From Candidatus Woesearchaeota archaeon (GTDB taxonomy: Archaea; Nanobdellota; Nanobdellia; SCGC-AAA011-G17; PNOQ01): DNA of 20,280 nucleotides. The stretch is from contig JBDRML010000025.1 in assembly GCA_043812195.1 (NCBI GenBank), positions 1 to 20,280 of the forward strand, read 5' to 3'. Positions within the stretch are counted from its first letter, which is position 1; the number at the start of each line of letters is the position of its first letter. The notes under the pieces are model-generated. The model had not been told where the DNA came from and did no database searches. It was given only the letters and a program-made list of their open reading frames with translations. This document shows positions 88-2,432 of this stretch, one piece after another. Position numbers and translations under genes: made by a program.

Positions 88-303
88 TTATTCCTTTAAT
101 GAATATGCTCTTCCAGCAAATTTAGTATCGCACTTAGTGCATAGCCAAATTCCATATGACACTCTTTTAACCTTATTTTTTAAACACAAAGGACATGAAT
201 ATTTAGCCTTTTGTTTTTTTTCTATTAAAGAGATCTTTCCTTTTAGAGATCTACCATATCTTGCTCCAAACCTACTAGCGCTACTAGCTTTTTTCTTTGC
301 CAT
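88..303 (-). CDS. rpl37ae: 50S ribosomal protein L37Ae (eL43)
   Basis: RFGARYG motif, CPLC...VKRVSYGIWLCTKC zinc finger, FAGRAY C-terminus. Confidence 0.96.
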   Translation of the reverse strand: MAKKKASSASRFGARYGRSLKGKISLIEKKQKAKYSCPLCLKNKVKRVSYGIWLCTKCDTKFAGRAYSLKE

Positions 304-359: not shown

Positions 360-366
360 AAAAAAA
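360..366 (-). terminator. Oligo-T tract directly after tRNA-Pro (likely archaeal terminator)
   Basis: T7 run on the minus strand immediately after the discriminator base at 367. Confidence 0.5.
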
Positions 367-401
367 TGGGGCTGCGAGGATTTGAACCCCGGTTGGCAGG
401 T

Positions 402-432
402 TTCTTGCATTCCGGATTGTATCCCAAAAAGA
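402..432 (-). other. Canonical 37/38 tRNA intron (31 nt)
   Basis: BHB: U32-G35 (TTTG) pairs with intron CAAG; bulges GG|T and AA|A; internal GGAT/ATCC stem. Confidence 0.9.
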
Positions 433-467
433 CCCAAACCTGCAGTCATACCAAACTAGACCACAGC

Positions 468-500
468 AAAATGCTATAACACATTTAAGTGAAATATAGT
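468..500 (-). other. Non-canonical tRNA intron at position 3/4 (33 nt)
   Basis: Removing it restores a GGGGCTG/CAGCCCC acceptor stem. Strict BHB: central helix GATG/CATT, bulges GG|A and TT|G, flanked by CTATA/TATAG and a leader:exon helix. Confidence 0.85.
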
Positions 501-542
501 CCCATCCTGTGATTTAGCCACTATTTCATCCACTAAATCTTA

Positions 543-550
543 TTTATAAA
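543..550 (-). promoter_or_regulatory. TATA box for tRNA-Pro
   Basis: TTTATAAA; typical spacing puts the start site near 520, giving a leader of about 17 nt. Confidence 0.6.
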
Positions 551-566
551 TCTATTGTTATTTATT

Positions 567-1364
567 TTAGAATGCTTTTCTTTTTTTCTTATCGAGTATT
601 TCTATTAATCTCTTATTCTTTCTAGGATTGCTAAAACCTATATTTTCAAAATAAGACTTAAGATATCTACTAGGAATTCTCAATAAATATAGATCTTTTT
701 GATTTCCTCCACGTCTTTTAACTGTAATCTTTGGAACAATATCAATTTTAAACAAAATATCCTTCAAATCCTCAATAAGCTCATTTGAAACAGAACCACA
801 AGCCACACTACAACTTTCAACAAATCCATCTGTATCCATCAAACCCCTAGCGAATCCACACAAAAAATCTTTACTATGCTCTTTATCTTTTCTTAATCTT
901 ACAGAATAAGTTTTTGGTTTTTCCCAACAAAGATCAGTTTGAATAAATTTTAATAACTCTACAGAACGAGTAGAAATATAAAGGCAACTCGGTTTTCCCA
1001 TAAATTTTGTTGTATACAAACTAACAGATAAACCCATATCTTTCAATATTGAAGATAAATATTCTACATACTTTTTATCATCACGATAAGATAAATAGAA
1101 TCTTATATTGTGGTTACCGCCTCTTCTAGATTTATCATGAAAATAAGAACCATCACCAGCAAAAGCCCCAATAAGTTCTCCCTTTACAAAATCAGAAGAA
1201 GGTAGCTTAATTTGTTTTATTCTCTTTCTATCACTTTTTCTGTTTACATGATATTGAATTGTACTTAAAGAAGTATTAGTTAAATTTTGAATAGATCTTA
1301 AACTTAAGCCAATATTTGACAATTTCTTTATCTCATTTATTTGGAGTTCACTTAGCTTTTTCAT
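567..1364 (-). CDS. Free-standing LAGLIDADG (DOD) endonuclease-family protein with N-terminal helix-turn-helix
   Basis: Two LAGLIDADG motifs, ELIGAFAGDGSY and FARGLMDTDGFV; C-terminal IGFSNPRK typical of intein-type DOD domains; N-terminal GLSLRSIQNLTNTSLSTIQYHV HTH. Confidence 0.88.
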   Translation of the reverse strand: MKKLSELQINEIKKLSNIGLSLRSIQNLTNTSLSTIQYHVNRKSDRKRIKQIKLPSSDFVKGELIGAFAGDGSYFHDKSRRGGNHNIRFYLSYRDDKKYVEYLSSILKDMGLSVSLYTTKFMGKPSCLYISTRSVELLKFIQTDLCWEKPKTYSVRLRKDKEHSKDFLCGFARGLMDTDGFVESCSVACGSVSNELIEDLKDILFKIDIVPKITVKRRGGNQKDLYLLRIPSRYLKSYFENIGFSNPRKNKRLIEILDKKKRKAF

Positions 1365-1477: not shown

Positions 1478-1966
1478 CTACTTCTTTTTAACTTCTTTTT
1501 TCTTCTCTTCTGGTTTCTTCTCAGATTCTCCTTCTTTCTTCTCTTCTTCTTCCTTAGGAGCTTCTTCAGATTCTGGTTTCTTCTCTTCTTCCTTCTCTAA
1601 TGCTTCTTTCTCCTTAGCCAACATTGCATTAACACTTATTAATTCTTCTTGTAATTTCTTTTTCTTTTCATCACTAATATCTATTTTCTCTTCATTAATC
1701 TGTTTATCATAAACCCCATTATCAATATCGACACAAATTTCTTTAGCCTCTTTACTCTCAACTAAAACACCCAAAGAACCACAAGTACCGACAACACTTT
1801 TAACAGCTCCCTTAAAATTATTAACTAACATATCATTTTTTTTCTCTTTAGCAACTTTAATAACTTGCTCTATCGCTAAATTACCTGATTTAACTAAATG
1901 AGGAGTACCAGAACCTTTCTCCAATCCTAATTCCTTCTTAATTAAATCAGATGTCTTTTCACTCAT
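1478..1966 (-). CDS. rpl11: 50S ribosomal protein L11 (uL11), C-terminal rRNA-binding domain only, with charged tail
   Basis: TSDLIKKELGLEKGSG...GNLAIEQVIKVAK...VVGTCGSLGVLVE matches the archaeal uL11 C-terminal domain. Start ATG at 1966 overlaps the spt5 stop (ATGAGTGA). Confidence 0.88.
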   Translation of the reverse strand: MSEKTSDLIKKELGLEKGSGTPHLVKSGNLAIEQVIKVAKEKKNDMLVNNFKGAVKSVVGTCGSLGVLVESKEAKEICVDIDNGVYDKQINEEKIDISDEKKKKLQEELISVNAMLAKEKEALEKEEEKKPESEEAPKEEEEKKEGESEKKPEEKKKEVKKK

Positions 1967-2432
1967 TTTCATCCTCTTCATCATCTTCTCTTCTTATAAC
2001 TTTAACAGAATCTAAATGTACAGTAATTGGAATTGGAACAGCAGCCTCTAACAATTCAACAATAACCTCTTCCTTATCTTTATCAATTCTAATAACCTTA
2101 GCCTTTTCTCCTTTAAATCCCGGTCCAGAAATAATTTCAACAATATCTCCTTTCTGAATATTAACTTGTGCCTTAACATGTTCAAGCATATGTTCAACTT
2201 CTTCATAAGGTAATGGATTAGGTAATAAACCTCTTGTGTAAGGAACACCAAAATAAGCTTCCTCAGCAGCATTCTTATCTTCTGCTTCAATAAAAATATA
2301 ACCTCTCATCCCATGAGGTCTAAAAATACTATAAACAGCAATGCCCTTTCTATTAACATTAGCTTCTATAAAATCTAAAACTTGATCTTCTCTGTTTGCA
2401 GTTGTCCTCATAACAAATATCAATCCGCTCAT
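1959..2432 (-). CDS. spt5: Transcription elongation factor Spt5/NusG
   Basis: NGN domain (RTTANRE, MRGYIFIEA) plus KOW (GDIVEIISGPGFKGEKAKV). Start likely ATG 2432, overlapping the secE stop (ATGA). Confidence 0.95.
   Translation of the reverse strand: MSGLIFVMRTTANREDQVLDFIEANVNRKGIAVYSIFRPHGMRGYIFIEAEDKNAAEEAYFGVPYTRGLLPNPLPYEEVEHMLEHVKAQVNIQKGDIVEIISGPGFKGEKAKVIRIDKDKEEVIVELLEAAVPIPITVHLDSVKVIRREDDEEDENE

Follow-up and report, generated by a model that had tools for sequence, protein, structure and literature searches.

Introduction

Introns of archaeal tRNA genes range from 11 to 129 nucleotides (nt) in the review by Yoshihisa (2014, PMC4090602), and introns at position 3/4 are known from the tRNAs of Thermoproteales (Sugahara et al. 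2008, as cited in that review). The alpha4 type of the splicing endonuclease EndA is described as limited to strict bulge-helix-bulge (BHB) motifs unless an extra loop is present, strict motifs with flanking helices being its described substrate range, and the gaps in the tRNA sets of DPANN archaea have been read as a sign of disrupted genes yet to be identified (Kaneta et al. 2018, PMC5829648). Homing endonuclease genes occur in archaeal BHB introns (PMC6125680), and in collaborative homing the target of a free-standing endonuclease is the allele without the intron, and an allele with the intron is protected by it (PMC6083498). Here we analysed a 20,280-nt stretch of DNA (contig JBDRML010000025.1, positions 1 to 20,280; hereafter the window) from a Candidatus Woesearchaeota archaeon, with respect to a tRNA-Pro(UGG) gene near its start and the LAGLIDADG homing-endonuclease-like gene beside it. 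With a probability of about 0.88, window positions 503 to 367 (minus strand) are a working tRNA-Pro(UGG) gene of a small-genome (0.94 Mb, 29% GC) DPANN archaeon, kin of the Woesearchaeota, which is interrupted by an intron at position 3/4 and spliced by EndA.

Results

The gene consists of three exons and two introns (Table 1). The body of the tRNA opens with TTTGCTG (470-464, minus strand), with GCUGUGGUCUAGUU following directly on the 33-nt intron 1, and the 3' acceptor strand, CAGCCCC followed by A73 (373-367), requires GGGGCUG as its partner. The sole source of the missing acceptor bases is a distant GGG (503-501), separated from G4 (467) by 33 nt (500-468). In-silico splicing was performed using a custom search which deletes BHB-bounded stretches and passes the products to ARAGORN. 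Deletion of the 33-nt and the 31-nt introns gave a tRNA-Pro(tgg) with the acceptor stem GGGGCUG/CAGCCCC paired at 7/7 positions; the alternative excisions gave mismatched stems, and only this combined removal gave a perfect acceptor stem. The locus failed the strictest BHB filter because of a U.U mismatch in the inner helix of the 37/38 intron, and was solved by the relaxed filter.

The sequences around intron 1 (500-468, laid out as A-CUAUA-16 nt-UAUAG-CAUU-UU) have the geometry of a strict BHB. The central helix pairs G506 A505 U504 G503 with C473 A472 U471 U470, the two 3-nt bulges are G502 G501|A500 and U469 U468|G467, and the inner helix of 5 bp joins CUAUA (499-495) to UAUAG (478-474). 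The outer helix is formed by GGCUAAAUCACAG (519-507) with 466-454, i.e. by leader nucleotides -16 to -4 on tRNA nucleotides 5-17, and is paired at 12 of 13 positions, including three G.U pairs, the lone mismatch being A514/C459. The motif thus has the strict hBHBh' form, with 3-nt bulges around a 4-bp helix, symmetric splice sites and a flanking helix on either side. Since the bases at both junctions differ, the intron position 3/4 is unambiguous. When the whole predicted precursor was folded, its minimum free energy (MFE) structure retained the leader-exon helix and the intron hairpin. An earlier note on this DNA, made from the letters alone, had described the TTTGCTG start, the GGG 33 nt away and every pairing of the central, inner and outer helices, and all of these are present on the minus strand. 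The 37/38 intron (432-402) was absent from its account, and was found here by the Rfam alignment and by the tRNA-Pro search of the assembly.

Minimal BHB-like pairings are frequent in DNA of 29% GC (about 40 per 400-nt region), so BHB geometry alone proves little. For this reason the full combination was scored. Of 200,000 shuffles of the 150 nt upstream, 28 produced a GGG followed by a strict BHB on exon 2, and none produced these together with at least 12/13 outer pairs. Placing 266,204 genomic 150-mers upstream of exon 2 gave GGG and BHB in 83 cases, a single one of which has at least 12/13 outer pairs and is presumably the tRNA-Pro locus itself. Chance origin of the full motif is excluded by the shuffling.

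ARAGORN found no tRNA in the unspliced window, and the Rfam tRNA model gave only a local match (model positions 4-67; 30 bits, cut-off 29) whose alignment carries a 34-nt insertion in the anticodon loop, in agreement with the expectation of the earlier note that standard scanners may miscall the gene. A second tRNA-Pro, for which the same note had asked to look, or another Pro-like piece was not found by blastn-short in the 90%-complete source assembly. This assembly (G000; G, C and L numbers are our labels for genomes, contigs and loci) comprises 938 kb in 45 contigs with 29% GC, and is the sole species of its genus in the genome collection used. A contig from one DNA run, possibly the source sample itself, spans window positions 421-571 with zero differences.

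The promoter is displaced to match the leader. The archaeal TATA box is, as a rule of thumb, centred near -26/-27. In the window G1 follows the first nucleotide of the TATA box by about 46-47 nt, and the spacing of box and leader predicted earlier holds. The TATA-to-G1 distance is 44-59 nt in 11 intron-bearing alleles from related genomes and 31-36 nt in 10 intron-less ones, the eleventh intron-less allele following another tRNA and having no TATA box; the promoter of intron-bearing alleles stands 10-25 nt farther upstream. By the -26/-27 rule, the leaders would be about 14-29 nt in intron-bearing and 1-6 nt in intron-less alleles, so that the intron-bearing alleles would transcribe the strand which forms the outer helix.

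The same architecture was found at 24 clean loci in 24 genomes belonging to 13 families of the same order. In an initial search of 60 relatives, the leader-GGG-intron design was present in G012 and G053, and other genomes had an intron-less tRNA-Pro(UGG). A pattern search run on 240 genomes of the order returned 14 sites, spread over 13 genomes; 11 were intron-bearing tRNA-Pro genes and three were chance matches in coding regions. A covariance model built from the 11 alleles was then run on 151 genomes and matched 28, which by our own reading of the printed sequences comprise 22 intron-bearing genes, five intron-less tRNA-Pro genes and one ambiguous case (G189). A BLAST-type search for relatives with the leader and intron was swamped by promoter-like AT-rich matches, and eight places matching the interior of the intron were rejected as coding regions or chance. 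Intron length varies from 14 to 33 nt across the 24 loci. In G207 the 3/4 intron sits in tRNA-Pro(GGG) and not in UGG. An eL43-like open reading frame (ORF) lies downstream at 15/24 intron-bearing and 9/15 intron-less loci, as judged by the motif GRFG, to which the SRFG of the window itself does not conform; its presence beside both kinds of allele indicates that they occupy the same orthologous locus.

Several further variants were seen in these relatives. G125, counted among the 22 intron-bearing covariance matches, resembles a 4/5 variant in which the central helix has a mismatch, and L158 (G189:C35:8625-8693) is a 33-bit covariance match before a different, tandemly repeated tRNA-like sequence, possibly an intron of this type in a further tRNA. 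An extra intron between G53 and U54 (T arm) accompanies the 3/4 intron of tRNA-Pro at L141 (G053), L145 (G176), L144 (G179), L075 (G165) and L154 (G061), and the tRNA-Pro genes of G012 and G038 have additional D-loop introns.

Pairing is kept although the bases change. In an alignment of 25 sequences, the central helix is paired in 25/25 (100%), and three of its four pairs show replacements of both partners (UA 10, GU 7, GC 5, AU 1 and CG 1 at one pair; AU 22 and GC 2 at another; UA 22 and CG 2 at the third); G1:C alone is invariant, being set by the tRNA. Pairing in the inner helix stands at 94.5%, and each of its five pairs varies on both sides. The first outer pair tracks tRNA nucleotide 5 (GC 22, AU 3). 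The observed pairing and covariation scores were reached by 0/500 shuffles, and a slid partner was 26-49% paired versus 93.6% observed. A separate MAFFT alignment of the 11 alleles gave a like result for the central and inner helices. In G012 and G097, A4:U69 stands in place of G4:C69, which fixes the splice point at 3/4. In the 11 intron-bearing alleles the duplex between leader and exon 2 has a mean energy of -12.4 kcal/mol (range -6.2 to -15.0), versus a mean of -6.0 kcal/mol in 11 intron-less ones.

The enzymes for processing such a precursor are encoded in G000. A single EndA gene was found, of 181 aa with the N- and C-terminal Pfam domains, and no second EndA subunit was detected among all genome ORFs of at least 70 aa. 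The best solved relative of this EndA is the alpha subunit of Nanoarchaeum equitans (3e-34), and the relatives named for it are Candidatus Woesearchaeota or Nanoarchaeota metagenome-assembled genomes. The protein is collinear with the alpha4 enzyme of Methanocaldococcus jannaschii without inserts, and is without the six residues which precede the catalytic His in the N. equitans protein. A strict and well-conserved motif is what an alpha4-type EndA would need. An RtcB gene is also present, as is an archaeal RNase P RNA (148 bits), the component that the earlier note had proposed to check.

The following pathway is proposed. A transcript starting at about 520 would fold so that the leader pairs with tRNA nucleotides 5-17, leader nucleotides -3 to -1 plus G1 pair with CAUU and the intron forms its own hairpin, which yields a 4-bp helix between two 3-nt bulges with a further helix on either side. 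The single EndA would cleave after G3 and before G4, and RtcB would ligate the exon ends. One strand of the outer helix comes from the leader, as do three of the four bases in the 5' strand of the central helix, so cleavage by RNase P at an earlier stage would destroy the motif. The acceptor stem needs nucleotides 1-3 joined to nucleotides 4-7 and would form only after ligation, and the leader is needed for the motif; splicing should therefore precede leader removal, which is the logical order for this precursor, with RNase P acting afterwards. The mature 5' end after 3/4 splicing is predicted to be GGGGCUGUGG, and the canonical 37/38 intron would be removed by the same enzymes. The first exon of only 3 nt envisaged earlier would, when splicing takes place, consist of the leader and GGG together (about 19 nt) and be kept in place on exon 2 through outer-helix pairing.

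Table 1. Coordinates of the tRNA-Pro(UGG) locus, its neighbours and other G000 tRNA genes with non-canonical introns. Plain numbers are window positions.
Feature	Position	Strand	Description
5' leader (predicted, ~16 nt)	504..519	-	-16 to -4, outer-helix strand; -3 to -1 plus G1, 5' strand of central helix
Exon 1	501..503	-	GGG, tRNA nt 1-3; G1:C invariant in 25/25 aligned sequences
Intron 1	468..500	-	33 nt, position 3/4; hairpin CUAUA/UAUAG, then CAUU, then UU
Exon 2	433..467	-	tRNA nt 4-37 (35 nt), anticodon UGG
Intron 2	402..432	-	31 nt, canonical position 37/38; 3-4-3 BHB, one U.U mismatch in inner helix
Exon 3	367..401	-	tRNA nt 38-73, A73 last; CCA not encoded
Likely terminator	360..366	-	Run of 7 T
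TATA box TTTATAAA	543..550	-	tRNA-Pro promoter; predicted transcription start near 520
Decayed last codons of older LAGLIDADG gene	521..562	-	NNNRFINKI*WMK*, contains the TATA box; judged by eye, fails the regular expression used for relatives
Free-standing LAGLIDADG homing-endonuclease-like gene	567..1364	-	265 aa; N-terminal helix-turn-helix (HTH); two LAGLIDADG-type motifs
eL43 (L37ae) ribosomal protein gene	88..303	-	Pfam PF01780, 6e-24; conserved downstream neighbour
Further non-canonical-intron loci	G000:C45:36170-36226, C29:46084-46190, C45:65546-65650, C26:4810-4907, C16:89082-89213, C45:66627-66786		His, Asp, Glu(UUC), Cys, two apparent three-intron genes

The 265-aa ORF upstream of the tRNA ends 64 nt before G1. 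It matches Pfam PF14528 (LAGLIDADG_3; 1.1e-16), with a weak match in the first domain and an HTH_38 match (1.9e-4) below cut-off; its motifs ..AFAGDGS.. and ..LMDTDGF.., with acidic residues, were judged by eye. A LAGLIDADG ORF adjoins tRNA-Pro at 11/24 intron-bearing and 0/15 intron-less loci (Fisher's exact p = 0.0024, which treats kin genomes as independent). Ten of the 11 lie directly upstream on the same strand, and that of G038 is convergent at the 3' end of the tRNA. For this comparison phmmer with 21 queries was used, as tblastn with the LAGLIDADG protein of the window matched only 2/24 loci. At least four divergent groups can be told apart among these ORFs. The final codons of the most frequent group, ...KFIKEIGWxK*, harbour the TATA box of the tRNA; this ending closes intact LAGLIDADG ORFs in G168, G043, G061, G097 and G053, and persists as a remnant at 6/13 intron-bearing loci without an ORF versus 0/13 intron-less loci scanned. 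Altogether, a LAGLIDADG gene or its terminal remnant stands directly upstream of 16/24 intron-bearing alleles. The window pairs such a decayed copy (562-521) with a LAGLIDADG gene of a different lineage, an arrangement which suggests successive invasions of one site. The sequence upstream of the window LAGLIDADG gene shows no recognisable trace of an earlier promoter with GGG. A ribosomal protein L11 gene (window 1478-1984, minus strand) and eL43 (88-303, minus strand) flank the LAGLIDADG/tRNA-Pro unit; many relatives have, upstream, a protein with a Lys/Glu-rich tail instead.

The association extends to other tRNA genes of G000. PF14528 has 26 matches in this genome, in 21 distinct ORFs, 13 of which are small (213-428 aa from stop to stop); the remaining matches, which may be inteins, belong to longer ORFs (1068-1500 aa). 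Nine of the 13 small ORFs overlap a tRNA gene or come within 110 nt of one, against 0.51 expected from random placement, and 0/20,000 random runs reached nine. Such ORFs flank 11/23 interrupted and 0/12 uninterrupted tRNA genes (p = 0.0055), a split which is our own reading and includes four ARAGORN-only loci that are possibly false; the underlying census of tRNA introns is incomplete, about eight loci having resisted the search. The tRNA-Lys(UUU) gene (L167; G000:C29:46198-46924) has a 652-nt strict BHB intron (46229-46880) after nucleotide 31 by the ARAGORN count, with a 213-aa LAGLIDADG ORF inside it; identification of this long intron as a group I intron had no support in Rfam. Another LAGLIDADG ORF (G000:C29:109590-110345, minus strand) runs through the 8-nt exon 1 of tRNA-Ser(GCU) (109508-109603) and stops in its 20-nt intron. 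The 90 nt upstream show no TATA box, so that this tRNA may be co-transcribed with the endonuclease mRNA.

Further tRNA genes of this genome are interrupted. Partial coverage of the model was found for 8/31 Rfam tRNA matches, and several tRNA genes have two or three introns, two of them apparently three. Non-canonical introns were found in Ser(GCU) (20 nt, after nucleotide 8), Glu(UUC) (33 nt, D region) and His (15 nt, T loop), all three of which passed the strictest BHB filter, and also in the T loop of Asp and near nucleotide 9 of Cys. The four nearest relatives (G001-G004, 0.6-0.7 Mb) have 1, 0, 5 and 0 LAGLIDADG matches and mostly uninterrupted tRNAs, and three of the five LAGLIDADG ORFs in G003 adjoin tRNA genes by our reading of the coordinates. 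With about 23 interrupted tRNA genes and 26 matches in the 0.94-Mb G000, endonuclease load and tRNA disruption rise together in this small sample. The LAGLIDADG genes and remnants beside tRNA-Pro and the small ORFs next to interrupted tRNA genes suggest an endonuclease-driven spread of tRNA introns.

Discussion

The window carries all the parts of a tRNA-Pro(UGG) gene in order, and what has to be weighed is whether the 5' end is made as proposed. Several observations weigh against this reading. The weak 4-bp central helix is undrawn in MFE folds, and the z-score is modest (-1.7). The assembly is 90% complete, so a further tRNA-Pro could exist outside it. The only RNA run matching the window covers 698-856, inside the upstream ORF, leaving the tRNA uncovered and giving no joints. 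On the comparative side, the 25-sequence alignment (A2) was fitted to the model structure, which biases it toward pairing; the outer helix of relatives has 1-nt bulges, and an ungapped register pairs just 53% of cells; the leader-exon energy differs modestly between self (-12.4 kcal/mol) and cross (-9.5 kcal/mol) combinations, and the intron-less alleles were therefore taken as the control; and the genomes are kin, so that counts across them are non-independent.

A genuine intron could have a long leader-exon helix that is dispensable for cutting: EndA would then need the 3-4-3 core only, and leader pairing would be a passive by-product of a cassette origin. The variability of the distal outer helix fits this, as does the description of archaeal EndA as reading the BHB itself (PMC4090602). 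However, 11/11 intron-bearing alleles keep a leader-exon duplex of -6 to -15 kcal/mol though both strands change, and intron-less alleles have no such duplex; the EndA of G000 is moreover collinear with the type described as limited to strict motifs with flanking helices (PMC5829648). We consider a dispensable leader helix unlikely.

A real gene whose 5' end is produced in another way, either from a trans-joined 5' piece as in a split tRNA or as a functional mismatched UUU start, has a precedent in N. equitans, another DPANN archaeon, whose split tRNAs are joined via leader/trailer helices (PMC4090602). Here, by contrast, all parts are in cis and ordered behind one TATA box and blastn-short detected no other Pro-like piece, while a UUU start would put three mismatches opposite CCC and leave a conserved BHB without a role, which makes this explanation very improbable. 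That the locus is a decayed or 5'-truncated pseudogene with a fortuitous likeness to a BHB upstream would account for the ARAGORN result, the low Rfam score and the commonness of minimal pairings in AT-rich DNA, but is barely credible given the shuffling result, the architecture with its compensatory changes in 24 genomes, the standing of the locus as the sole tRNA-Pro found in the assembly and a promoter shifted so as to cover the leader.

The preferred reading, a working tRNA-Pro(UGG) gene spliced at position 3/4 before its leader is removed, has several implications. The apparent sole tRNA-Pro of a genome is missed or called truncated by standard scanners, and DPANN tRNA complements are likely under-counted. 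An intron at an extreme position could be kept over the long term (13 families) with a single EndA without a specificity loop, provided that the motif stays strict, and the order of splicing before RNase P would be forced by the design of the locus. If the link with LAGLIDADG genes is causal, it would provide a mechanism for the gain and spread of protein-spliced tRNA introns and a concrete route by which archaeal tRNA introns arrive, a question called open by a 2026 preprint (10.64898/2026.10.13.758758).

For the origin of the intron we offer a tentative proposal, drawn by analogy, which we hold with less than even confidence: the 3/4 intron and the free-standing LAGLIDADG gene may form a mobile cassette, a case of collaborative homing with a protein-spliced archaeal intron. 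The endonuclease gene would bring with it, in its last codons and the sequence that follows them, a promoter, leader and GGG to replace the old ones, and the short BHB intron would split the endonuclease target in the 5' end of tRNA-Pro. In this DPANN lineage LAGLIDADG endonucleases would then drive the gain of non-canonical tRNA introns.

LAGLIDADG enzymes of archaeal rRNA BHB introns, such as I-DmoI and I-PorI, are one point of comparison. As in those introns, a BHB intron is associated here with a LAGLIDADG gene; unlike them, the host is a tRNA gene, and the 33-nt intron does not contain the endonuclease gene, which sits upstream of exon 1 with the tRNA promoter in the region of its last codons. 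The Lys(UUU) intron of G000, with its ORF inside, resembles the rRNA-intron arrangement. A literature search found no description of LAGLIDADG genes beside tRNA BHB introns. The gene arrangement is like that of F-CphI beside psbA in cyanophage S-PM2 (Zeng et al. 2009, via PMC6083498), where a free-standing endonuclease gene adjoins the intron-bearing gene and is absent from intron-less alleles. That system differs in involving a group I intron in a phage, with cleavage and protection demonstrated; here the likeness is one of arrangement.

The split tRNA genes of N. equitans and permuted tRNA genes share with the present gene a leader or trailer outside the mature tRNA which forms a BHB helix (PMC4090602; PMC4033280). 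In those genes two transcripts are joined or a circular intermediate is formed, whereas the tRNA-Pro described here would be spliced in cis from one transcript, through a strict and not a relaxed motif.

The nearest described relatives of the intron itself are the 3/4 introns of Thermoproteales, and the remark in the earlier note that such introns are rare and reported from that group agrees with Yoshihisa (2014, PMC4090602). Because they are in print, this kind of intron is already known. Our literature search found no description of 3/4 introns in DPANN archaea, although published supplementary intron lists and DPANN tRNA predictions may bear on novelty. Both cases share the extreme position three nucleotides into the acceptor stem and splicing of the EndA-type BHB kind. 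The hosts differ, being Crenarchaeota there and DPANN/Woesearchaeota here, and so do the enzymes, (alpha-beta)2 EndA with a specificity loop in Thermoproteales and a single EndA collinear with the alpha4 type in G000. In contrast to the Thermoproteales introns, the tRNA-Pro intron occupies one orthologous locus across 13 families and has a linked LAGLIDADG gene. What is new is thus the lineage, the conservation at one locus across the order, the co-shifted promoter and the link with LAGLIDADG genes.

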